DNA of 64,000 nucleotides from Bacteroidota bacterium (GTDB lineage: Bacteria > Bacteroidota > Ignavibacteria > UBA10030): the NCBI GenBank assembly GCA_049644265.1, contig JBARRO010000139.1, forward strand, positions 5,462 through 69,461. The letters are read 5' to 3'. A program made the translations under genes and the position numbers. The first letter of the stretch is position 1. Every line of letters begins with the position of its first letter. Under the pieces are notes generated by a model. That model was not told the origin of the DNA. It made no database searches and saw only the letters and a program-made list of their open reading frames with translations. This document shows positions 1,623 through 12,078 of this stretch, one piece after another.

Positions 1623-2324
1623 TCAGGTTACTTTGCTTTTGACCGATTGATGAACTTCCCGCAAGAACATCGTTGCGAGGTTTGTTGAAACACTCTCTTT
1701 CGGCGCCCGTTCGGGGTGCCACTGGACGAGCATAAGGAACGGCATCCCTTCTTTTATCGCCCACTCCGCTGCCTCAATCACACCGTCCCCTGATTGAGCA
1801 GACGGAACCAGGCCCCTTCCGAGCTTCTCCACCGCCTGGTGATGGTAGGAATTCACTTGTTCGACAATTCCCGTTGTCATGATGCGAAGCAATGAATGGG
1901 GAGCAACGGTGACAGCGTGACGCGTTTCGTTTCCCTTTGGGCTTGAATGATTCTCGAAACCTTCCGACGCCAGATCGACGTGGAGGGTGCCGCCCAGATA
2001 CACGTTCATGACCTGCATCCCGCGGCAGATTCCCAGGATTGGCAGGTCTGCGTTCAAAGCTTTCTCGATGAGAGCAAATTCAAATTCATCGCGCCGCTCA
2101 TCCACCCCTTGAGTCTTCGGCAGCAATTCCTGTCTGCCATAGTTCACGGGGTGCACGTCTCCGCCTCCTGTCAGGACAAGTCCGTCAAGAGCAGAAACGG
2201 ATTCAGCGGATGGGGCATCCTGGGACAACTTGTCGATCTTGATCCCAGGATCCACAGAGTGGATCCACTCGACATATTGCCGGAATTTGTCTTCGTTACG
2301 CGTATCGGTGATCCCAATCTTCAT
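1623..2324 (-). CDS. Class-I glutamine amidotransferase-like protein, peptidase C26 / gamma-glutamyl hydrolase family
   Basis: ORF 1623-2333; ATG giving MKIGITDT at 2324. Motifs GICRGMQ (catalytic Cys) and HPE near the C-terminus are typical of the C26 family. Directly downstream of lpxK. Confidence 0.75.
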
Positions 2325-2333
2325 AGAATGCAA

Positions 2334-3377
2334 CTACCTCTTGTTCAAAACCCTTGATAACGCACTCGTCAGAACTTCATCGCCTGCAATGAATGCTTGT
2401 TGTATCTCCACATAGAAAATCGGAAATTTCTCGAGAAACGATTCCCCCGAACTTCCGCGCAACCGGCTCACATCTTTTTCCGTTGTCACGAACGCCTTCG
2501 TGTCCGCTCGTCCTGTCAGCTCTGCAATATCGTCCTTCGAATACCAATGATGGTCCGGATACGTATAGTGCCTCACGACATCCAGGCCCATCTCTTTGAG
2601 TATCGTATCGAAGGATTGCGGCCGCCCAATCCCGGAAAAGGCGACGACGCGTTGTCCCTTAAGCTTCTCCAATTGCCAAACTTCATTCGAGGATGCCCTT
2701 CGAACGGCCTTGAATCTCGTTTGGACACCAACCATTCGACTGCCGGCCTGGGATGCGAGTTTGGCACTGGCCTTCTCAAAATGGCTCTTGTCGTTGCATT
2801 GTGAAAGAACGACGATGTCTGCTCTCCTTAATGACGAGGGCGGCTCACGTCGGTTCCCTGCCGGCAAGAGAAAATCACCTGCAAGAGCATCGTCCGCGGT
2901 CACGAGGACAATATCGAGATCCCTTCGAAGATACCGATGCTGAAATCCGTCATCGAGGACAATGAGCGAAACCCCGAAATCTGCGACAACATTCCGCGCA
3001 GCGCGCACTCTGTCCTCGTCGACCGCGACCACAACGCCCTGAAGTTTTTCCGCCAACTGAGCCGGTTCATCCCCCGCCGTCCACGCTTCGGCGCAACGCT
3101 GAGCACCATTGCTGACAACCACATACCCTCTGGTTCTTCGCCCGTATCCCCTGCTCAGCACAGCAATTTTTTGTTTTGACGACGCGAGCCTGGACACGAT
3201 CAGCTCCACGAATGGTGTCTTTCCGGTGCCGCCCACGGAGAGGTTACCCACTGAAACGACGGGAACGCCTGCATCGGCAACCCGGAATATCCCGATTTCA
3301 AAGAACCAGTTGCGAAGTGCGACTCCCACTCCGTACAGGAGCGACAGCGGAACGAGAAGAATGCGGAGTCGATTCAC
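2334..3377 (-). CDS. lpxK: Tetraacyldisaccharide 4'-kinase
   Basis: 347 aa. P-loop VGNLSVGGTGKTP and overall LpxK-like sequence. GTG start. Its stop abuts the GATase start. Confidence 0.85.
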   Translation of the reverse strand: MNRLRILLVPLSLLYGVGVALRNWFFEIGIFRVADAGVPVVSVGNLSVGGTGKTPFVELIVSRLASSKQKIAVLSRGYGRRTRGYVVVSNGAQRCAEAWTAGDEPAQLAEKLQGVVVAVDEDRVRAARNVVADFGVSLIVLDDGFQHRYLRRDLDIVLVTADDALAGDFLLPAGNRREPPSSLRRADIVVLSQCNDKSHFEKASAKLASQAGSRMVGVQTRFKAVRRASSNEVWQLEKLKGQRVVAFSGIGRPQSFDTILKEMGLDVVRHYTYPDHHWYSKDDIAELTGRADTKAFVTTEKDVSRLRGSSGESFLEKFPIFYVEIQQAFIAGDEVLTSALSRVLNKR

Positions 3378-3380
3378 TTG

Positions 3381-4502
3381 TCAGGCCAGCTGAACAATCC
3401 GTTCCGCCACGCGCCTTGACGCTCCCACCGTGCCGAGCATTCCTTTCACTTTCGACAACTCTGCTTTCATTTCACTCAACCGCGCTTCATCGGCAAGCAG
3501 CCGGAGCGCTCCGCGAACCAGGGTCCGCGGGGATGCCCGGTGCTGGATGAATTCGGGCACAATGCGTTTGCCGGCAACAATGTTCACGAGGCCGATATTC
3601 TTGATGCTGACGAGCACTCTGCCGATCAGGTACGTCAGCCACGAAGTCTTGTACAAGACGAACATCGGCGTTCCAAAGCACGCCGTTTCCAGCGTCGCGG
3701 TGCCCGACGTAACAAGCGCAAAATCGGCGTTGGCCATGAGCTCGTAGGTCGCCCCTTTGACAAGCCGGATTCCGTCGAGGTTGAAAAGGGTTTTGAAATA
3801 TTGTTCCTCGAGGGTTGGCGCCACTCCGACCGCGACCTCCATATTCCGTCGGATTGCGATGGCCTTCGCTGCGGAAAGCATAGCCGGAAAGATCGTTTCG
3901 ATTTCCTGACGCCTGCTTCCGGGCAAGAGCCCGATGAGTTTCTTTTTCTCGTCGAGGTCGTACCGTTTGAAAAAATTCTTCCGGTCAAGCTGAGACTGAA
4001 GGACTTCCAGAAGCGGATGGCCGACGAATTCGACGTCGATTCCCTCCTTACGATACAGGTCCACCTCAAACGGAAAAATGACGAGCATCTTATCCACCAG
4101 TCCCTTCATCTTTTTGATCCTCGACTTGTGCCACGCCCACACCTGGGGGCTGATGTAGTACACCACGGGCACTCCGTATTTCTTGGCGACAGCCGCAAAC
4201 CTCAGATTGAACCCCGGATAGTCTATCAGAAGAATGACGTCGGGCTTTTTGAACCTGACGATCTGGCCGAGCGTATGTTCCATCGCTTTGATGAACGGCA
4301 AATGCTTGAGCACCTCGACGAACCCCATGAATCCCAGTTCCTTGATGTGATAGATGAGGTCCATTCCTTCGCGCTTCATCTTGTCTCCCCCCACACCGTA
4401 GACGTCGATTTCGGGGGAGATACGTTTGAGCTCACGGACAACACCCGAGCCGTGCAGGTCACCGGACGCCTCGCCCGCGATGATCATGACTCTGCGGACC
4501 AC
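3381..4502 (-). CDS. lpxB: Lipid-A-disaccharide synthase
   Basis: 373 aa. N-terminal IIAGEASGDLHG and GT-B fold features of LpxB. 3-nt gap to lpxK. Confidence 0.9.
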   Translation of the reverse strand: MVRRVMIIAGEASGDLHGSGVVRELKRISPEIDVYGVGGDKMKREGMDLIYHIKELGFMGFVEVLKHLPFIKAMEHTLGQIVRFKKPDVILLIDYPGFNLRFAAVAKKYGVPVVYYISPQVWAWHKSRIKKMKGLVDKMLVIFPFEVDLYRKEGIDVEFVGHPLLEVLQSQLDRKNFFKRYDLDEKKKLIGLLPGSRRQEIETIFPAMLSAAKAIAIRRNMEVAVGVAPTLEEQYFKTLFNLDGIRLVKGATYELMANADFALVTSGTATLETACFGTPMFVLYKTSWLTYLIGRVLVSIKNIGLVNIVAGKRIVPEFIQHRASPRTLVRGALRLLADEARLSEMKAELSKVKGMLGTVGASRRVAERIVQLA

Positions 4503-4504
4503 GG

Positions 4505-5089
4505 TCAGCCCCTATACCAAAGAACGACAAGAATGAGCATCACGAGAAGAATCGCCTGAAGCGTTCTACGTTCGGATTGCCCCGCCTCAGCCCATTTTGG
4601 CGATTGCGAAGCTTGTGCAGGGTGTTCGTAGCGACTCCATCGTGGGAAAAACCTCGGCACATTTTTTTTGAATTCCCTATACGCCGCGCCAAATTCTTTT
4701 TCGAGAAATTCCTCCTCGAGCGAGACGATCATCCCATACTGAAACGAGAAATACACCAGTGCGAGAATTTGAAGCCATGGCACCAACGCGTTCGACATGA
4801 TGCCGATGCCGGTGTAGAGGAGGATATTCCCGATATACAGCGGGTTCCGAACGTACGCAAACGGACCGGCAAGGATCACTTCCGGCGCGCCGACACTTGC
4901 GACGCGGGTCAGGCTTCCTGCGTACGCGACCCCCCAGAATCTGAGAAATTCCCCGGTGACGACAACGGCAAAGCCCACGACCATCGTCAGGGCAGACGGT
5001 TGGGCGAACACCACCATGACCGCAAGGAACGGAATCGGAGTGTAGCTGCGATAGTGAAAAAGACTTTCACGGAATGACACGGGATTCAT
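4505..5089 (-). CDS. Membrane methyltransferase of the isoprenylcysteine carboxyl methyltransferase (ICMT)/PEMT family; candidate lipid-A phosphate methyltransferase (LmtA-like)
   Basis: 194 aa, 4-5 predicted TM helices, family signature GPFAYVRNPLYIGNILLYTG. ATG at 5089 overlaps the HAD gene stop and the gene ends 3 nt before lpxB, so it is operonic with the lipid-A genes. Confidence 0.7.
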   Translation of the reverse strand: MNPVSFRESLFHYRSYTPIPFLAVMVVFAQPSALTMVVGFAVVVTGEFLRFWGVAYAGSLTRVASVGAPEVILAGPFAYVRNPLYIGNILLYTGIGIMSNALVPWLQILALVYFSFQYGMIVSLEEEFLEKEFGAAYREFKKNVPRFFPRWSRYEHPAQASQSPKWAEAGQSERRTLQAILLVMLILVVLWYRG

Positions 5090-5799
5090 CCTTGCATGAA
5101 GACTTCACGCCGCGCCATGACCGCCTCGCGTCGCCGCTTGGGCTTGTGCTGAAGAATTTCGGCTAGTCGTGCGTGGACTTCCCTGAAGTCGTCGAAGGCG
5201 TGATAACTGATGTTTTGTTCCTGGCAGTACTTGATCAGGCTTCTTTTTGCAAACACAATATCGGCAAACCGCACCGGACACCGGTCCGATATCCCGTCAC
5301 CGACGTAGACAACCACATCTTCATCGGCGCTCTGCGTAAGCATGTGGTTTCGTTTGCAGTTGCCGCAATAATCGCATTCTGCATCGGCATACGGGAACGA
5401 AACCTCGAGGCTCGTTCCTCCGGCGGTCGTGACGAATTCCAGATGGTTGGCGTACCAGGGAAGGCGGCCGAGGCCGTGGCGTGCAAGAATTCTTCCAACA
5501 TAAAAATCCAATCCGTCGCTCAGAATGGCTAAGGGGATTTCCCTCTCGTTACAAAAATCTACAAATCCCTTGAAGTACGGATCAAGCGAAAACTGTTCCA
5601 GGAATGATTCAAACTCCGCGGCTGTTACATTCTTCACAGCAGCGCATTCTCGTGTGAGACACTCTCGTGCGGTGGCTGTGCCGTCGAGATACCCCTTCAC
5701 AATCTCGTTTGCCAGCTCCCCCACATACGTCCGGAAAAACCGATTACCGATATCGATCGGTGAGACTGTTCCGTCAAAGTCGCAGAATACCCGCACCAT
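5086..5799 (-). CDS. HAD-superfamily phosphatase (MtnX / HAD-IB-like)
   Basis: 237 aa. N-terminal DxDGT motif (VFCDFDGTVS) and distal GDGISD motif. Confidence 0.7.
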   Translation of the reverse strand: MVRVFCDFDGTVSPIDIGNRFFRTYVGELANEIVKGYLDGTATARECLTRECAAVKNVTAAEFESFLEQFSLDPYFKGFVDFCNEREIPLAILSDGLDFYVGRILARHGLGRLPWYANHLEFVTTAGGTSLEVSFPYADAECDYCGNCKRNHMLTQSADEDVVVYVGDGISDRCPVRFADIVFAKRSLIKYCQEQNISYHAFDDFREVHARLAEILQHKPKRRREAVMARREVFMQG

Positions 5800-5807
5800 G
5801 CAGCGCT

Positions 5808-8800
5808 CTACGTTTTCTCCACCTGCGTGTCGAATTTCACCGAGACAAGCTTTGAGATCCCCTCTTCTTCCATCGTCACACCGTAGAGGGCATTCGTCGC
5901 TTCCATCGTTCGCTTGTTGTGGGTTACGACGATGAACTGTGTGTTGTCCGAGAACTTGCGAAGAATCCGGGTAAACCGGTCGATGTTGGAATCGTCAAGC
6001 GGCGCATCGACCTCGTCCAGGATACAGAACGGGCTCGGTTTCACCAAATAGATTGCAAAGAGCAAAGCAATGGCGGTCAGGGTTTTCTCACCGCCTGACA
6101 GAAGATCGATCGACGTCGGACGCTTTCCCCGCGGCTTTGCGATGATTTCAATTCGTGCCTCAAGCGGATCGACTCCGTCCTCAAGACGAAGGTCGCATTC
6201 ATCACCCTCATCGAAGAGTCCTTTGAACGTCGCGATGAAATTGTCCCGAATCAGCTCAAACGTGGCGCTGAACTGTTTTTGCGCTGTCGTATTGATCTCG
6301 TCGATGGTTGCCACCAGAGTCTTCTCCGACTCCTGGAGGTCATCCCTCTGGGCCACGACGAAGTCGAGGCGTTCCTTTTCACTTTTGTACTCATCGAACG
6401 CCGCAAAGTTCACCGCGCCGAGGTTTCTGATTTTGTCCTTCAGCACCCGGACTTCCTCCCGAGCGGTATTGAAATCGTACTGATCACCGTCAGGGTATTC
6501 CTTCAGCTGGAGCTCAAGGTCGAGTTCATCTTTCGCCCTTGACTTCAGGTTCTCGGCCTTCATGGTCAATTCCTGGACTTTAATCTCCAGGTCGTGAGCC
6601 GCTTGCAGAGAGCCTTCCTGTTTCAGGCGCTCATCCTTGAGCTTCATCTCGATTTCATGCATCCGGCCACGCTTTGCACCGTAGTCCTTGTCGACTGATT
6701 TCTTGCGTTCCAGGAGCGATTCAAATTCCTGGCGCGAAAGGGACAGGTCCGTTTCCAGGTCACGCGCTTCAAACGCGATACGGTCGATTTCCTCGCGGGA
6801 GGCTGTGACTTCTGCGGACCGCTGGTCGAAGAGGGCCGCAACCGAGTCGAGGTTCGAGCTCGTGTAGTCGATCGACTGCTGGATGCGCTGTTCTTCTGAT
6901 TTCAAAGAGAGCACCCGGACATTCGCCTCATTCGTCACGCGCGCGTATTCATTCCCGAGCGCCTCCATCGTTTCAAGCTCGCTCGTTAACACGCCCACCT
7001 GGCGCTCCGACTCCGCCTTCGTGCGTTCGACCCGCTCAAGGGAAGGAATCAGCGTCCTGAGCTCTGCATTCAGCGTTTCAATCTCGCTGTTCAGCTTGTT
7101 CGTTTCGGTCCGATTGCGGTCGATGTTCTCCAGAGCCCGCTTCTTTTCAAACTCCAGTTGGGCGATGCGGACCTCCACGGAAGTCTTCTGCTGTTCGAGA
7201 GCGCGGGCGTCGTCCGTCAACTTCCTCAGGTTTACGCCTTCGAGCTCTTCAGCCTTCTTCTCCATTTCCTCTTTGAGCTTTTCGTGGCGTTCCTTCAGCC
7301 GGCGGAGTTCTTCCGTGAGCTCCTCGAGCTGGGATTTCTTGCTGATGTGGCCGCCCTCATCCTGGCGAAGGCTACCCCCGCGCACGACACCTTTTCCGGT
7401 GATTACTTCACCTTCGAGGGTCACGCAACGCATGTTCGGGTATACCGCGACCAGCCGGTTTGCTGCAGCGACATCGTTGACAAGCAGCGTCTCATCGAAC
7501 AGGAAATTGAAGAGCGCCTCGTACCGGCCGTCAAATTCGATGAGGCTGCTCATCCATCCCACCACCCCTTCGTCCTGAAGAGCGATCCGGTGGTTCGAAA
7601 TGTGAGGCAGGCGATTCAGGCAGATGAATGTTGCTTTCCCCTTCTGGTTCCGCTTGAGGAAGTCCATCGCCGCATAGGCCCGCTCGACGTTATCGACAAC
7701 CACGTACCCTGCAGCCTCGCCAAGCGCAGTCTCCACGGCAATCCGATAGCGGGGGTCGGTGGTCAGCGCTTCGCCAACGGTTGTCTGAATGTCGGAGTTC
7801 CACTCGTTGCTTGTAATCAGATACCGGGCACCCTCAGAATAGCCGTCAAAGCTTTCGACAAGACCTTTGAGAAAGTCGATGCGCGCTTCCTTGCGCTCGA
7901 TTTCCCCGCGCACTTCCAGCTCCCGGTGATGCAGGGCTTCAACCTCATCCTGAAGCTTGCGCTTGTAGTCTTCCATCTGATGCGTTCGGACTTCGGCTTC
8001 GGCAAACGCGCGCCGGAGTTCCTTGTTCTCGGCCGTGAGCTTTCCAATCAGCTCACTGTTGTTATCGATATCCTGTCCGTAGATCCCATTCTCCTCGGTC
8101 GTGTACCCAATGCGGCCGCGGATATTCTCGATGCGAGCTTTCGACTGGCCTTCCGTGTTCCGAAGCTCCGACATCTGATGCAGCAGAGCAAGCACCTGGT
8201 CCTGGCCCGACTTCAACTCTGTCTTTTTCGCGTTCAGCTGAATTTCGAATTCATCGAGCTCCCGTTTCTTCTTCTTATGATCTTCCTCTGCGGCTCCCAC
8301 CTTCTCCCGAACAGCCTCCAGGCCGCGGAACAGCTCTGTCTGCTTATTTTTCAGTTCCTGCCGCTGTTTCTGGAAATCGATTTTTTCCCGTTCGAAGCGC
8401 TCGATGTTTGCGACAAGCGAACGACGTCGTTCGGCTGTCGTGGCCTGCTTTTGTTCAAACTGATGGATCCTGGATTGATGCTCGGAAAGGTCATTCTGTG
8501 CAGCGGTGAGCTGATCCTCCAGCTCCTGCAATTCCGTCCGAAGGACATCCAGGAGAGCTTCCTCCTGCCGCACTTCCACGTCGATTCTGTTCTTCTCCGT
8601 GACGGCAATGGAAAGCTGTTCGCGCAGGGGGGCGATTTTAGAGACCACGCTCGAGTACTCCCGTTCCATCAGGTCTGTCTCCAGGCCCTGCAGCTGCTTC
8701 ACAAGTTCGTTGTAGCGTTCAGCCCGCTGAGCTTGGCGCTCGAGCGATTTGACGGCTTTTTCCACTTCCCGGACGATGTCATTGACCCTCGTCAGGTCGA

Positions 8801-9356
8801 GGCGAACGCTCTCAAGCCTCCGGTAAGCCTCTTTTCTTCTGTGTTTGTACTTCGTCACACCAGCGGACTCTTCGAATAGACGTCGCCGCTCGTCCGAGCT
8901 GTCGCTCAGAATGCTTTCGACCATCTTCAGCTCGATGACCGAGTATGCATCCGAGCCCATGCCGGTATCCATGAAGAGGTCCCGGATATCCTTGAGCCGG
9001 CAGAGCGTCTTGTTGATGTAGTACTCGCTCTCTCCGGACCGAAACACCCGCCGCGTGATTGTCACTTCCGAATACTCGGTCGGGAGAATTCCCTTTGTGT
9101 TTTCGATCGTGATGGAGACTTCGGCGACATTCAGAGGCTTTCGGGATTTCGTCCCGTTGAAAATGACGTCCTCCATCTTGTCGCTTCTGAGGGTCGTAGG
9201 CCGCTGCTCTCCGAGCGCCCAGCGAAGAGCGTCGACAACATTGGTTTTGCCGCAGCCGTTCGGGCCGACAATGCCCGTCAGACCGCTGTCGAAGTCGAGA
9301 TTAACCTTCTGCGCAAATGACTTGAAGCCAAAGATTTCCAGCTTCGATAGATACAT
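5808..9356 (-). CDS. smc: Chromosome segregation protein SMC
   Basis: 1182 aa. Walker A GPNGCGKTN at the N-terminus, long coiled-coil middle, hinge, and C-terminal LSGGEKTLTAIALLFAI signature plus Walker B ILDEVDAPLD. Confidence 0.95.
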   Translation of the reverse strand: MYLSKLEIFGFKSFAQKVNLDFDSGLTGIVGPNGCGKTNVVDALRWALGEQRPTTLRSDKMEDVIFNGTKSRKPLNVAEVSITIENTKGILPTEYSEVTITRRVFRSGESEYYINKTLCRLKDIRDLFMDTGMGSDAYSVIELKMVESILSDSSDERRRLFEESAGVTKYKHRRKEAYRRLESVRLDLTRVNDIVREVEKAVKSLERQAQRAERYNELVKQLQGLETDLMEREYSSVVSKIAPLREQLSIAVTEKNRIDVEVRQEEALLDVLRTELQELEDQLTAAQNDLSEHQSRIHQFEQKQATTAERRRSLVANIERFEREKIDFQKQRQELKNKQTELFRGLEAVREKVGAAEEDHKKKKRELDEFEIQLNAKKTELKSGQDQVLALLHQMSELRNTEGQSKARIENIRGRIGYTTEENGIYGQDIDNNSELIGKLTAENKELRRAFAEAEVRTHQMEDYKRKLQDEVEALHHRELEVRGEIERKEARIDFLKGLVESFDGYSEGARYLITSNEWNSDIQTTVGEALTTDPRYRIAVETALGEAAGYVVVDNVERAYAAMDFLKRNQKGKATFICLNRLPHISNHRIALQDEGVVGWMSSLIEFDGRYEALFNFLFDETLLVNDVAAANRLVAVYPNMRCVTLEGEVITGKGVVRGGSLRQDEGGHISKKSQLEELTEELRRLKERHEKLKEEMEKKAEELEGVNLRKLTDDARALEQQKTSVEVRIAQLEFEKKRALENIDRNRTETNKLNSEIETLNAELRTLIPSLERVERTKAESERQVGVLTSELETMEALGNEYARVTNEANVRVLSLKSEEQRIQQSIDYTSSNLDSVAALFDQRSAEVTASREEIDRIAFEARDLETDLSLSRQEFESLLERKKSVDKDYGAKRGRMHEIEMKLKDERLKQEGSLQAAHDLEIKVQELTMKAENLKSRAKDELDLELQLKEYPDGDQYDFNTAREEVRVLKDKIRNLGAVNFAAFDEYKSEKERLDFVVAQRDDLQESEKTLVATIDEINTTAQKQFSATFELIRDNFIATFKGLFDEGDECDLRLEDGVDPLEARIEIIAKPRGKRPTSIDLLSGGEKTLTAIALLFAIYLVKPSPFCILDEVDAPLDDSNIDRFTRILRKFSDNTQFIVVTHNKRTMEATNALYGVTMEEEGISKLVSVKFDTQVEKT

Positions 9357-11992
9357 TAGCCAAGGCTCCGTGCGACGTTCACGACCAGTGAAAAATACGA
9401 CCCTAACGCGTATGTCGAATCATAGTAGAAGAACAGGGCACCCAGCAGCACGGCGCTTACAAGGACACCCCCCACATACACCTTTGCCGAGCTTAAGTCG
9501 TAGATAACGGAGACACCTTTGAGAATCCTGGAGAACGCCCAGAGCAAAAACACGAAGATCAGGACAAGAGAGGGAATGATGTAGAGTGGATTCTCCATGA
9601 CCTTGAACAGACTCATCGCCACGGGGCTGAGGAATATCAGCGGCATTGCACCCCAGACCGAGACGGTATAGGAATGATACCAGGAGATTTTTTTTCGAAT
9701 GAATACGGAACAAACCTTCACCAGCATTGCCAGAAGGCCAAACCCCACGAAGAAACACCCGGTAAAGGCCATAATTCCCGCCAGCGGATGCCAGGTTGCC
9801 CTGATAAACTGCTCCTTGAGCGAATCCCAAACGATGAAGTAGGTGAGCACATAGTCCGCAAACCTGTCCGCACGGTAATGATAGAGGATGCTCGACAGTA
9901 CGACCGCAAGCGTAATGGAAATTGAAAGAGCAAGCAGGAGTGTTTGAAACATCGACACGGAGTGATGGTCGCGAAGGTCGGCGAAGAAATTGTATGAACG
10001 CAGAAACGCACGCTTGATCGCCTCACCGAACCGGCGGTTGTAGGTGTACTGATACCCGACCAGAATGATCACAAACAGACCCGAGAGCACATGCGCGACG
10101 GGAAAGCTCGACCGATACGTGCCGATGGGAATGGCGTTGATTTTTTCTTCCGAGTAGAGCGCCCTGACCATTTCATACGATAACCTCTTTGCACGGTCAT
10201 AGCTCATCAGACCGACCGGGTGAACGTAGTGGTCTTCGATATTCACGTTCATGATCGGCCGGTCGCCTCGCCAGTCCGCGAACGACGATACAAAGCTGCC
10301 GGCGATCTTCAAATCCCTGATCGCGCCGTATTGCTGAAAGAAAAATCGTGCCTGAGCTTCCTGTGAGAGCGGGTCGCTGTATCCATTCCGGTTATTCTGG
10401 TCGACTTCCTTTCCATAGCTGAGCACAATCACCGGCTGGTTCGCGTGATCTTTTTTCCATTCGGACAAGAGCCGGCGAAAATTCTTCAGGTCGGCGGAAG
10501 GAAGGTTGATCGCAGCAAAGTCGACTTCCTTGGCGCACACATCGTTATAGACCATCCGTGAACCAAAATAGACGGGGCGTGCGTCGAGAGACCGCGCCAC
10601 GGCTGCAGCCTGCCGTACAAACGCGGCCGCGCGTTCATCCGCGGAGTCGAACTGGTCCCCGATTCCCCAGGCGAGCACAGCGGGGTTTTCCAGGTCGCGT
10701 TCAATCATTTCGCGTAGATAGGTGTCGGTGAGACTCTGGAAGGATTCGTCGGAGAGGATGTCGACCGGAGCGTTCCAGACGGGAACCTCTTCGAGTGCAA
10801 ACAATCCGTAGCGGGCGCAAAGGTCAATCATGTACGGATGCGGGGGATGGAACGCAAACCGCACTGCGTTGGCGCCGAGCGACTTCATCAGCACCACGTC
10901 TTTATCCATCTGTTCGTAGGTCAGGGAAGCTCCGACGCCCGGGTGGTCTTCGTGCCAGACAATGCCTTTCAGGGTCGCGGCAACACCGTTGACCTCGAAG
11001 GATTTGGCCCCGACGACCACATGGGAGAATCCGATGAGCCGGTCCATTTCATCGATGGCCAACTTTTGTTTACCCTCAACAGAGAAGATCGTCGCCCGGA
11101 GGAAATAGAGCTCGGGAGTTTCGGGACTCCACAGTCTCGGCTCGTTCATTGTCAACGAAGTCTCAACGTTGTGCTCCTTGTTCCGTTCGAGCGAGAGAGC
11201 GACCGGAAGCGATTGGGCAACGACGGCCTGCGACATCTTGTCTACCAATTCCAGACCCACCATATAGCTGACGTTCACAGGGCGGTTGTCCGAAGAGTCT
11301 TTCTTGAGTCCCTGGAACCCTCTGTTACTGATAACAGCGGATACGCGGATCGTGCCTACCTTCAGGTCCGTACTGACGGTGGGGAGTGCATGGAGCTCCG
11401 AGATCCATAATCGCGGCGTCACAAGAATGTACACATCGCGCAGAATCCCGCCGTAGTTTCTCCAACCCCAGACTTGTTTCCGCAACGGCAGCGTTGATCG
11501 TCCGTTGAGTCGATTGTCGACGACGATCTGAATGGAATTCTCCGGTCCAAGCTGCAACGCTTCGTCCGGGATATCGAACTCCGTTGTCGTGTATCCCCCG
11601 ACATGCTTCCCGATGAAGACATCGTTGACAAAAACTTCGCACTCATAGTTGATTCCGAACGCAACCAGACGAAACACGTGCGACTGAAGGAGCGATTCGT
11701 CCATCGTGAACTTCCGACGGAAGGTTACTTTTCCTTCAAAGTCGAGCGAGCTCGGGACCTTGAGTTCGCTCCATGTCTCTTTGTCCGTTGAGAATGTCCA
11801 GGTTCCGGCGAGGTCGATTTTCTCTCGCAGCGGTGTGTCGGGATAGATGCCGGCGTCCTGGCCCCTGAGCGTCGGCTGGCCATTTTCCAGAATCCGTTGT
11901 TGTGCAAAAACCGGGGTAATTAGAAATAATGCGGAGACAAGTGGAAGAAAAAGGCTGAAAATACGGGGGAAAATGTGAGGTTTTCTTGTCAA
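9356..11992 (-). CDS. Glycoside hydrolase family 2-like periplasmic domain fused to a C-terminal polytopic (about 8 TM) membrane domain
   Basis: 904-aa ORF. Probable TTG start at 11992 gives a signal peptide MTRKPHIFPRIFSLFLPLVSALFLITPVFA-QQ. GH2 sugar-binding and TIM-barrel regions are recognisable, followed by eight hydrophobic helices. Stop overlaps the smc start. Confidence 0.65.
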   Translation of the reverse strand: MTRKPHIFPRIFSLFLPLVSALFLITPVFAQQRILENGQPTLRGQDAGIYPDTPLREKIDLAGTWTFSTDKETWSELKVPSSLDFEGKVTFRRKFTMDESLLQSHVFRLVAFGINYECEVFVNDVFIGKHVGGYTTTEFDIPDEALQLGPENSIQIVVDNRLNGRSTLPLRKQVWGWRNYGGILRDVYILVTPRLWISELHALPTVSTDLKVGTIRVSAVISNRGFQGLKKDSSDNRPVNVSYMVGLELVDKMSQAVVAQSLPVALSLERNKEHNVETSLTMNEPRLWSPETPELYFLRATIFSVEGKQKLAIDEMDRLIGFSHVVVGAKSFEVNGVAATLKGIVWHEDHPGVGASLTYEQMDKDVVLMKSLGANAVRFAFHPPHPYMIDLCARYGLFALEEVPVWNAPVDILSDESFQSLTDTYLREMIERDLENPAVLAWGIGDQFDSADERAAAFVRQAAAVARSLDARPVYFGSRMVYNDVCAKEVDFAAINLPSADLKNFRRLLSEWKKDHANQPVIVLSYGKEVDQNNRNGYSDPLSQEAQARFFFQQYGAIRDLKIAGSFVSSFADWRGDRPIMNVNIEDHYVHPVGLMSYDRAKRLSYEMVRALYSEEKINAIPIGTYRSSFPVAHVLSGLFVIILVGYQYTYNRRFGEAIKRAFLRSYNFFADLRDHHSVSMFQTLLLALSISITLAVVLSSILYHYRADRFADYVLTYFIVWDSLKEQFIRATWHPLAGIMAFTGCFFVGFGLLAMLVKVCSVFIRKKISWYHSYTVSVWGAMPLIFLSPVAMSLFKVMENPLYIIPSLVLIFVFLLWAFSRILKGVSVIYDLSSAKVYVGGVLVSAVLLGALFFYYDSTYALGSYFSLVVNVARSLG

Positions 11993-12078
11993 TTCAGTTG
12001 AAGCAGGATGTGCGCCAAGAAGCTGTCGGAAAACCCGACAATACGCAGAATGACTCTGAATATAATACAAAAAGGAGG

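Follow-up and report, generated by a model that had tools for sequence, protein, structure and literature searches.

Open reading frames and sequence identify a tightly packed series of genes on the minus strand, encoding an SMC protein, a HAD-IB phosphatase (HAD), a methyltransferase of the ICMT/PEMT fold (MT), LpxB, LpxK, and a C26 amidotransferase. The window, meaning the whole stretch of 64,000 nucleotides that was analyzed, belongs to an Ignavibacteria-class MAG. The layout agrees with the original prediction, which described HAD and MT as packed together with lpxB and lpxK.

The conserved block begins with a gene (positions 9356..12070, minus strand, as are all genes described here) for a GH2-like protein (Glyco_hydro_2_C, 85 bits) that has a weak, sub-threshold C-terminal match to a Yip1-like membrane domain (22 bits, compared with a cut-off of 28.6). 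The position of this gene is conserved among the loci of relatives. Next in the same block is the SMC chromosome-partition ATPase (5808..9356; SMC_N 244 bits, SMC_hinge 92 bits), which is located directly upstream of HAD (5086..5799) with a spacer of 8 nt. The MT gene (4505..5089 for the longest ORF, 194 aa) is separated by only 2 nt (CC) from lpxB (3381..4502), which starts with a GTG codon at 4502 and encodes lipid A disaccharide synthase (PF02684 328 bits; TIGR00215 289.5 bits, cut-off 190). A 3-nt spacer leads to lpxK (2334..3377), which encodes the tetraacyldisaccharide 4'-kinase (PF02606 307 bits; TIGR00682 213.9 bits, cut-off 92). The gene for the Peptidase C26/class-I glutamine amidotransferase (1623..2333; PF07722 170 bits) follows lpxK with no intervening nucleotide and within the same operon; most Ignavibacteria loci have this gene after lpxK as well.

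A scan for promoters and terminators yielded nothing above chance, and the cluster contains no terminator-like sites beyond chance expectation. The seven genes, from that for the GH2-like protein to that for the C26 amidotransferase, are probably co-transcribed. The 64-kb window lacks lpxA, lpxC, lpxD, and gnnA, as well as LpxH-like genes and genes for LpxH, LpxI, LpxG, or KdsC, and an Rfam scan of the window returned no matches. An extra gene is present between lpxB and lpxK in some relatives; it was suspected of encoding LpxH or LpxI, and proved to be DUF374.

HAD and MT were also predicted originally to overlap by 4 nt. This ATGA overlap holds only for the longest MT ORF. The N termini of homologs, and the public annotation of a near-identical protein of 191 aa (P0001), begin at the position of a GTG codon at 5080, and this codon is preceded by an AAGGA motif at a distance of 8 nt. 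Judging from these features, the true MT start is probably GTG 5080, which would yield a protein of 191 aa and leave a gap of 5 nt in place of the overlap. HAD and MT are packed for co-transcription under either start.

Relationship of the methyltransferase to LmtA

The MT protein exceeds the Pfam gathering scores of both PEMT (PF04191; 38 bits, cut-off 25) and ICMT (PF04140; 26.9 bits, cut-off 24), of which PEMT is the top match, and thus belongs to the superfamily of ICMT/PEMT-fold membrane methyltransferases. A profile search against LmtA and the ICMT family, as the original prediction had proposed, gave LmtA_Leptospira (TIGR04571) as the best NCBIfam match, with 58.8 bits. Scores on the other NCBIfam ICMT-fold models were 32.8 bits for protein-isoprenylcysteine methyltransferase and 21.1 bits for MddA; these models number only three, so that "closest to LmtA" means closest of three. 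Because 58.8 bits is far from the 325-bit cut-off of the LmtA model, MT is classified by its sequence as LmtA-like and not as an ortholog of LmtA. The analogy with LmtA drawn in the original prediction is therefore retained as a relationship, given the top NCBIfam match and a recurrent link between MT and lpxB, but it does not extend to orthology.

The relation to LmtA, which rests on HMM scores, is shared by the wider subfamily. Each of the 139 subfamily representatives that were sampled matches LmtA (best E-value 1.5e-32, still far below the cut-off). Five distant members score 51-72 bits on the LmtA model, and two of these matches run nearly end to end (positions 7-200 of 252).

The C-terminal cofactor motifs of MT, RNPLY..GN (RNPLYxGN) and EEEFLEKEFG..Y (EEEFLxxxFG), align to residues 114-192 of the archaeal ICMT 4a2n. 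In an alignment of 54 diverse sequences (A2; mean column identity 31%), R50, G75, R81, P83, and N88 are invariant, and all of these except R50 are still invariant across an alignment of 139 members (A6). The mean pairwise identity of full-length MT representatives is 34%. An AF2 model of MT is all helical (pLDDT 78). When this model was compared with the PDB by using Foldseek, ICMT 5v7p was matched with a probability of 1.00 but an E-value of 0.16, and the best E-value was 0.037 (8xku_G); these E-values are weak, and the matches bear on the fold only. Hydrophobic stretches are located at approximately residues 19-51, 94-113, and 172-194. MT is thus predicted to be a SAM-dependent integral membrane methyltransferase with the ICMT fold.

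MT therefore resembles ICMT/Ste14 (4a2n, 5v7p) and Pfam PEMT in its fold, in its C-terminal SAM-binding motifs, and in its predicted location in the membrane. However, the genomic context of MT is that of lipid A and not of phospholipid head-group synthesis, and the invariant residues R50 and N82 (in RNPLY, compared with RHPMY in ICMT 4a2n) are specific to the subfamily. These residues suggest that the acceptor may differ from that of ICMT. In addition, bacteria are not known to contain CaaX-prenylated protein substrates.

LmtA and MT both appear to be ICMT/Ste14-like, multi-pass membrane proteins that use SAM, as predicted in the case of MT, and both are tied to lipid A, either genomically or functionally. 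They differ in that the LmtA model has 252 positions, compared with 191-194 aa for the window MT, and in that MT is found in different phyla (Ignavibacteria, Kryptonia, and Armatimonadota-type MAGs). In addition, the window MT resides inside an lpxB-lpxK operon, and its relatives in other phyla are fused to an LpxB paralog; the literature that we surveyed describes nothing comparable for LmtA.

Association of the methyltransferase with lpxB

The gene order HAD-MT-lpxB is present in all 80 related genome loci (Ignavibacteriota, Melioribacteraceae, and Kryptoniota), apart from those truncated by contig ends. MT is immediately upstream of lpxB in these loci, even though LpxB identity falls to 40%. 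A metagenome scan, for which the query was a six-sequence alignment led by a consensus, revealed a further 24 loci with the same order. Because the order recurs in 80 genome and 24 metagenome loci, the arrangement is not due to chance. However, SMC is upstream of HAD in all loci with enough flanking sequence, and the block conserved in Ignavibacteria includes both SMC and the GH2-like gene. Synteny in this lineage alone therefore cannot prove a shared function, and it is in part plain inheritance.

MT is linked to lpxB or to LpxB-like genes in other, independent contexts as well. Metagenome loci of group B carry the order GFO_IDH_MocA (GnnA-like)-MT-lpxB-DUF374-lpxK, with overlaps of 0-4 nt and no HAD gene. 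Locus L118 has a T9SS subtilase gene followed by MT, lpxB, one intervening gene, and lpxK, again with no HAD gene. Elsewhere, an LpxB-like GT19 domain is joined to MT in fusion proteins of 580-638 aa, which form more than 10 clusters at 90% identity. The fusions reside in clusters with the order BamA-Skp-lpxD-lpxC/fabZ-gnnA-lpxA-lpxB-[fusion]-metallophosphoesterase in Armatimonadota-type MAGs. In locus L084, lpxB, an LpxB-like gene, and MT are separate, overlapping genes. Genes resembling gnnA are present in MT groups B and C, as they are in Leptospira, whose lipid A contains diamino sugars.

In a neighbor-joining tree, both of the main branches include lpxB-linked MTs, whereas HAD-linked MTs form a single nested clade. 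Distant members of the profile-defined subfamily adjoin unrelated genes, namely those for LarC, a cation-efflux protein, a thiolase, and an AIR-synthase-like protein, and the link to lipid A is therefore not universal in the subfamily. Nonetheless, MT is connected to lipid A biosynthesis both by adjacency to lpxB (groups A and B and locus L118) and by fusion to, or abutment with, LpxB paralogs. We infer that MT is a member of a broad LmtA-like subfamily that has not been named before and that is tied functionally to lipid A assembly.

The HAD-IB phosphatase

HAD is a protein of 237 aa that scores above the cut-offs of the HAD subfamily IB models TIGR01488 (67.4 bits, cut-off 45) and PF12710 (47.8 bits, cut-off 27) and also matches PF06888 (37.3 bits). 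Its score on TIGR01489, the model of the MtnX-like HAD-IB subfamily, is 79.7 bits, just under the cut-off of 81.55. The closest solved structure is MtnX of B. subtilis (2fea, 82 bits), which is a 2-hydroxy-3-keto-5-methylthiopentenyl-1-phosphate phosphatase. The best solved and the best curated relatives of HAD are both of the MtnX type (82 bits to 2fea and 111 bits on NF007103). The alignment with MtnX spans residues 4-215, and both proteins have CGxCK around the motif III lysine. However, HAD falls far below the cut-offs of the MtnX equivalog models (NF007103, 111 bits, cut-off 292; TIGR03333, 101 bits, cut-off 303), and it carries an additional, conserved basic tail at its C terminus, with 8 K/R among the last 30 residues. 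No methionine-salvage genes are present among the annotated neighbors of HAD.

All four HAD-IB catalytic motifs (DxDGT, S/T, K, and GDxxxD) are present. Among 26 homologs, D7, D9, G10, T11, S94, K149, G167, G169, S171, and D172 are invariant, and D168 is nearly so. No transmembrane or hydrophobic segment was detected in HAD (maximum KD19 1.23). These features are those expected of a soluble, catalytically intact, MtnX-like HAD-IB enzyme, and we classify HAD as such from its sequence. A cysteine triad was considered as a metal site and was rejected, because the triad is not conserved in Melioribacteraceae-like orthologs.

The known lipid A 1- and 4'-phosphatases, LpxE and LpxF, belong to the PAP2 superfamily. 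These are membrane proteins that act at the periplasmic face, whereas HAD is Rossmannoid, uses an Asp nucleophile, and is expected to be soluble and cytoplasmic; what they would have in common is no more than the proposed function of taking a phosphate off lipid A. Pfam and NCBIfam searches found no PAP2 domain in HAD, in agreement with the original description of this protein as HAD-type rather than PAP2-type.

The genes for HAD and MT are neighbors in the Ignavibacteria/Kryptonia clade alone, and this clade is nested inside the larger set of lpxB-linked MTs; HAD is absent from the other lpxB-linked contexts (group B, L118, and Armatimonadota-type). Because the HAD-linked MTs are one nested clade, HAD was added after the association between MT and lpxB already existed. 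HAD is therefore a later, lineage-specific insertion and not an obligate partner of MT. The original suggestion that HAD trims a phosphate from lipid A or a precursor is disfavored by this history, as well as by the soluble, MtnX-like character of the protein, and a small phosphorylated metabolite is a more likely substrate than is membrane-embedded lipid A.

Proposed methylation of a lipid A phosphate

LmtA of Leptospira is a membrane protein that uses SAM to methylate Kdo2-lipid A at its 1-phosphate (Boon Hinckley et al. 2005, as summarized in PMC4402001). According to the literature, Leptospira is the only organism in which a lipid A phosphate has been described as methylated (PMC10248169). 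The modification is believed to have a part in the atypical way in which innate immunity recognizes Leptospira lipid A.

The genomic associations of MT make it very likely that this enzyme tailors lipid A, with the acceptor assigned by analogy. Our preferred interpretation, to which we assign a probability of roughly 55%, is that MT in the lipid A operon works on the cytoplasmic side of the membrane, where it O-methylates a lipid A intermediate at a phosphate, and that HAD is a lineage-specific addition. The predicted topology would place the active site of MT toward the cytoplasm, where SAM is available. The substrate that MT draws from the inner leaflet may be the product of LpxB or LpxK or a Kdo-lipid A intermediate formed later, and MT would O-methylate one of its phosphates. 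By analogy with Leptospira LmtA, a phosphate is the most likely target, and the 1-phosphate would most likely be the one modified, with the loss of one negative charge. HAD, a presumptive soluble MtnX-like HAD-IB phosphomonoesterase inserted upstream of MT only in Ignavibacteria and Kryptonia, would be co-expressed with MT.

Enzymes with the ICMT fold also methylate carboxylates, amines, and thiols. MT might therefore act on lipid A or LPS at an acceptor other than phosphate, either by methyl-esterification of the carboxyl group of Kdo or a uronic acid, or by methylation of a hydroxyl or amine. Adjacency to lpxB and the fusions fit this possibility equally well, carboxyl methylation is the founding activity of the fold and shares its cofactor motifs, and the 51-72 bits obtained when members are scored individually against LmtA are low enough that specificity need not be conserved. 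However, LmtA is consistently the best-scoring characterized relative, and LpxB and LpxK make or use phosphorylated disaccharides to which neither Kdo nor uronic acids have yet been added (pathway knowledge; PMC4402001), so we regard a non-phosphate acceptor as unlikely. MT could also be unrelated to lipid A. A generic ICMT/PEMT enzyme, for example one that N-methylates phosphatidylethanolamine or that modifies a protein or a small molecule, could have retained its place beside lpxB as inherited gene order. The top Pfam match to PEMT, the unrelated neighbors of distant subfamily members, and conservation of the entire GH2-SMC-HAD-MT-lpxB-lpxK block, including the functionally unrelated SMC, would be expected in such a case. 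Nevertheless, MT is linked to lpxB in at least four arrangements with different flanking genes, and in a different phylum it is fused to an LpxB paralog within complete operons for lipid A. Inherited synteny therefore cannot explain the linkage, and a generic enzyme is the least probable of the explanations considered here.

The two remaining possibilities concern HAD. HAD and MT could be a functional pair that works on lipid A phosphates: one phosphate, such as that which LpxK attaches at the 4' position, would be cleaved off by HAD on the cytoplasmic side, and MT would methylate the remaining one, to produce a Leptospira-like lipid A with a single methylated phosphate. Indeed, Leptospira lipid A has one phosphate, which is methylated (PMC10248169). 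The two genes are adjacent or translationally coupled at every locus of the Ignavibacteria/Kryptonia clade, although HAD identity is as low as 32%; the catalytic residues of HAD are all conserved; and its conserved basic C-terminal tail, for which the aligned region of MtnX has no counterpart, could mediate binding to the membrane or a partner. These observations are outweighed by the persistence of lpxB-linked MTs in contexts that lack HAD and by the late arrival of HAD in a nested clade. Furthermore, SMC is equally conserved beside HAD, the closest relatives of this soluble protein are small-molecule phosphatases (MtnX, the PHOSPHO-type PF06888 family, and SerB), and the established lipid A phosphatases are PAP2 membrane enzymes of the periplasmic face. 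A functional pair thus seems quite unlikely. The same doubt applies to a more ambitious proposal, in which HAD is a new, non-PAP2 lipid A phosphatase recruited to the cytoplasmic face of the membrane by its tail, the pair gives Ignavibacteria and Kryptonia a lipid A with a single methylated phosphate as in Leptospira, and LmtA-like methyl-phosphate lipid A, including that made by fusions of LpxB paralogs to MT, is widespread in uncultured diderm phyla. Alternatively, HAD could supply or recycle a soluble LPS precursor as a non-orthologous substitute for KdsC (Kdo-8-P) or GmhB. Both are HAD-superfamily enzymes of LPS synthesis, and the HAD gene immediately precedes MT-lpxB in an operon for lipid A. 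Moreover, in Armatimonadota-type clusters the gene after the fusion encodes a metallophosphoesterase with an LpxH-type fold, and it lies on the opposite side of MT from the HAD of Ignavibacteria. However, HAD has no similarity to KdsC or GmhB models and matched only MtnX, HAD-IB, and SerB, and we consider such a function improbable. Much less likely is a substitute for LpxH, LpxI, or LpxG that makes lipid X for LpxB. HAD phosphotransferases take phosphomonoesters as substrates or pass on an unsubstituted phosphoryl group, so that cleavage of a UDP-sugar pyrophosphate would be chemically unusual. On these grounds a role as an LpxH/LpxI analog was rejected as the main explanation, despite the fact that the UDP-diacylglucosamine hydrolase step has been filled several times by unrelated enzymes (PMC3087551; PMC4807358).

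Methylation of a lipid A phosphate by MT, as in our preferred interpretation, would mean that this modification may not be unique to Leptospira. In Ignavibacteria, Kryptonia, a lineage that carries gnnA, and Armatimonadota-type genomes, members of the LmtA-like subfamily are part of lipid A operons, and some of them are joined to a second LpxB. Should such enzymes indeed methylate lipid A phosphates, the resulting reduction in charge would be an old and widespread means of tuning the outer membrane rather than a curiosity of Leptospira. Cultured relatives (Ignavibacterium album and Melioribacter roseus) are available, so that the prediction can be tested directly. The HAD gene is also a candidate for a phosphatase step that has no assigned enzyme, and the fusions of LpxB paralogs to MT provide a handle on the role of these paralogs.

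A conserved operon around lpxB

The ICMT/PEMT-fold methyltransferase gene (MT; 4505-5089, minus strand) lies directly upstream of lpxB in a tightly packed series of minus-strand ORFs. As the original prediction had it, the order is HAD (an MtnX-like HAD-IB phosphatase gene; 5086-5799, 237 aa), MT, lpxB (3381-4502) and lpxK (2334-3377). The spacers are 2 nt between MT and lpxB and 3 nt between lpxB and lpxK, and both lpx genes are canonical by family matches. On the same strand, an SMC gene (5808-9356) precedes HAD by 8 nt, and a C26/class-I amidotransferase gene (1623-2333) begins immediately past the lpxK stop codon, with no spacer. The predicted 4-nt overlap of HAD and MT holds, as ATGA, for the longest MT ORF (194 aa). 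However, a GTG start at 5080 is favored by homologue N-termini, by a public 191-aa version of the protein (P0001, 99% identical), and by an AAGGA motif 8 nt upstream, so the genes are instead separated by 5 nt if this start is used. A sequence scan found no terminator-like sites inside the cluster beyond chance expectation, and no Rfam family reached its gathering score across the whole 64-kb window.

The nearest database proteins belong to MAGs of the class Ignavibacteria, which carry the labels "Bacteroidota bacterium" or "Ignavibacteriales." A scan in which each species was represented by a single genome found close MT relatives in 446 species, and the best 80 of these loci all belong to Ignavibacteriota, Melioribacteraceae or Kryptoniota. 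The order GH2-like, SMC, HAD, MT, LpxB, LpxK, usually followed by C26, is retained in 80 of 80 as far as the contigs reach, with identities down to 40% (LpxB) and 38% (SMC). This shows that the cluster is an old, stable operon in its home lineage. Because the SMC and GH2-like genes are equally conserved, this synteny alone is no proof that HAD, MT and LpxB function jointly.

Several flanking genes deserve comment. The GH2-like gene (9356-12070, minus strand) encodes a 904-aa protein with GH2 domains and a multi-pass C-terminal region (weak Yip1 match). The end of this gene and the start of SMC share 1 nt, and the gene holds this position in every related locus; it is odd for a membrane-anchored GH2 to share an operon with smc. 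The C26 protein has weak NCBIfam matches (PuuD-like, 71 bits; gamma-glutamyl-CDP-amidate hydrolase, 55 bits). Its gene follows lpxK in most Ignavibacteria loci and, like HAD, is found beside MT-lpxB-lpxK in no other lineage. A DUF374 gene (212-228 aa), absent from the window, lies between lpxB and lpxK in Melioribacteraceae-like relatives and in a metagenome lineage termed group B (for example, L074:7711-8367, L077:7717-8379, L093:8748-9410 and L097:8732-9394).

An LmtA-like methyltransferase subfamily

MT exceeds both relevant Pfam thresholds, with 38 bits for PEMT and 26.9 bits for ICMT, and the cofactor-binding motifs of a solved archaeal ICMT (4a2n) align with its C-terminal half. AlphaFold predicts a membrane protein made up entirely of helices (pLDDT 78), for which the best look-alikes among solved structures (Foldseek) are ICMT-fold proteins, with weak E-values. 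By sequence, the top solved-structure match, ahead of archaeal ICMT, is to PDB 8xku chain G. This chain is AtTam46, which belongs to the Ycf2-FtsHi motor complex of Arabidopsis chloroplasts, and the match falls in its ICMT-like C-terminal domain.

The analogy originally drawn with LmtA, the Leptospira methyltransferase of lipid A 1-phosphate, agrees with profile searches. The LmtA_Leptospira model (TIGR04571) is the best NCBIfam match at 58.8 bits, versus 32.8 for protein-isoprenylcysteine methyltransferase and 21.1 for MddA, although the score is far below the cut-off of 325 and the library holds only three ICMT-fold models. By the best available reading, MT would function as LmtA does, but it scores below the threshold of that family.

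When 1.84 billion representatives were searched with a profile, the full-length members at E <= 1e-30 made up a subfamily of 160 representatives (mean pairwise identity among full-length members, 34%). G75, R81, P83 and N88 are invariant in both a 54-sequence alignment (A2) and a 139-member alignment (A6), and R50 is invariant in the former. LmtA is the NCBIfam model matched by each of 139 sampled members (best E-value 1.5e-32), none near the cut-off, and two of five distant members align with the model nearly end to end. Judging from these sequences, MT is probably best seen as the first described member of an lpxB-linked subfamily that resembles LmtA. More distant members have unrelated neighbors (LarC, cation efflux, thiolase and AIR-synthase-like). 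In several representatives (P0264, P0272, P0304, P0389, P0301 and P0388), two ICMT/PEMT domains are joined in tandem, giving MT-MT fusions of 410-604 aa.

Association with lpxB in other lineages

In two subfamily representatives, MT is fused to an LpxB-like GT19 domain. A follow-up search found such fusions, of 580-638 aa, in more than 10 clusters at 90% identity, some from Armatimonadota MAGs (P0427, P0433 and P0491; also P0373, P0426-P0434, P0492 and P0497). The fusion genes (L081:9001-10917, L082:9001-10830 and L083:9001-10764) lie directly after canonical lpxB inside complete lipid A operons of Armatimonadota-type MAGs, and the fused GT19 domain is a divergent LpxB-like domain, second to the operon's canonical LpxB. 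At L081 the order is BamA, Skp, LpxD, LpxC/FabZ, a GnnA-like oxidoreductase, LpxA, LpxB, the fusion and a metallophosphoesterase; L082 adds a DegT aminotransferase to this arrangement, and L083 carries LpxC, FabZ, GnnA-like, LpxA, LpxB and the fusion. At L084, LpxB, the LpxB-like protein and MT are encoded by three separate, overlapping genes.

A metagenome scan revealed two further arrangements. In group B, a GnnA-like GFO_IDH_MocA gene, MT, LpxB, DUF374 and LpxK follow one another with 0-4-nt overlaps (for example, L100:6009-10449, L112:5846-10378 and L125:6069-8655). Locus L118 carries a T9SS subtilase, MT, LpxB, an uncharacterised gene and LpxK. No HAD-IB homologue was found near MT in group B, L118 or the fusion loci, with contexts assigned by tblastn using a limited query set. 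In a rough neighbor-joining tree, the HAD-linked MTs form one nested clade, outside which group B, L118 and a further locus (L117) branch; the fusions fall on the second of the two main branches. The association of MT with lpxB therefore appears older and broader than that with HAD.

Because lpxB adjacency recurs with differing flanks, and because MT is joined to an LpxB paralogue in Rosetta-stone fusions within lipid A operons, there is strong comparative evidence that the subfamily acts on a lipid A intermediate. The proposed tie of MT to lipid A is supported on the same grounds. Most likely, MT would O-methylate a phosphate of lipid A on the cytoplasmic side of the inner membrane, following LpxB and perhaps LpxK. 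The similarity to LmtA is distant and was judged against only two other ICMT-fold models, and carboxylates, amines and thiols are further acceptors of enzymes with this fold; an acceptor other than phosphate is a less likely alternative. In Leptospira, a methylated phosphate and a diamino-sugar backbone occur together in lipid A (PMC10248169), and the gnnA-like genes beside MT in group B and at the Armatimonadota-type loci are a parallel. By this analogy, the gnnA link in group B hints at diamino-sugar lipid A; the 64-kb window contains no gnnA-like gene.

According to a 2023 survey, methylated lipid A phosphate is unknown elsewhere than in Leptospira (PMC10248169). Our literature search found no report of it outside that genus, nor of an ICMT-family gene linked to lpxB or lpxK. 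The interest of the present findings lies in the breadth of the MT-lpxB association and in the LpxB-like fusions, and the predicted methylation is open to testing in cultured Ignavibacteria.

The accompanying phosphatase

HAD is a HAD-IB enzyme (TIGR01488, 67.4 bits; cut-off 45) whose closest relatives are MtnX, which it matches at 111 bits (cut-off 292; 82 bits against the solved structure PDB 2fea), and the PHOSPHO-type PF06888 family. Across 26 homologues, its four catalytic motifs vary little or not at all, and the sequence suggests that it is probably an active phosphatase co-expressed with MT. The original prediction cast it as a candidate phosphatase of lipid A or a precursor, paired with MT. 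A role as a lipid A phosphatase or as MT's required partner is not supported: HAD is restricted to one clade, is soluble, with no hydrophobic segment, has nearest relatives that act on small phosphoesters, and is unrelated to the PAP2 lipid A phosphatases. In its favor, a conserved basic C-terminal tail (residues 208-237, with R223, A226 and R230), beyond the part aligned to Bacillus subtilis MtnX, might permit a peripheral-membrane role. It is also possible that HAD serves as a substitute sugar-phosphate phosphatase resembling KdsC or GmhB. UDP-diacylglucosamine hydrolysis was considered as well; on chemical grounds, a HAD enzyme is unlikely to perform it. Residues 142-152, which include the motif III lysine, follow the pattern C-x2-C-x2-CKRNH, and some orthologues lack the first two of these cysteines.
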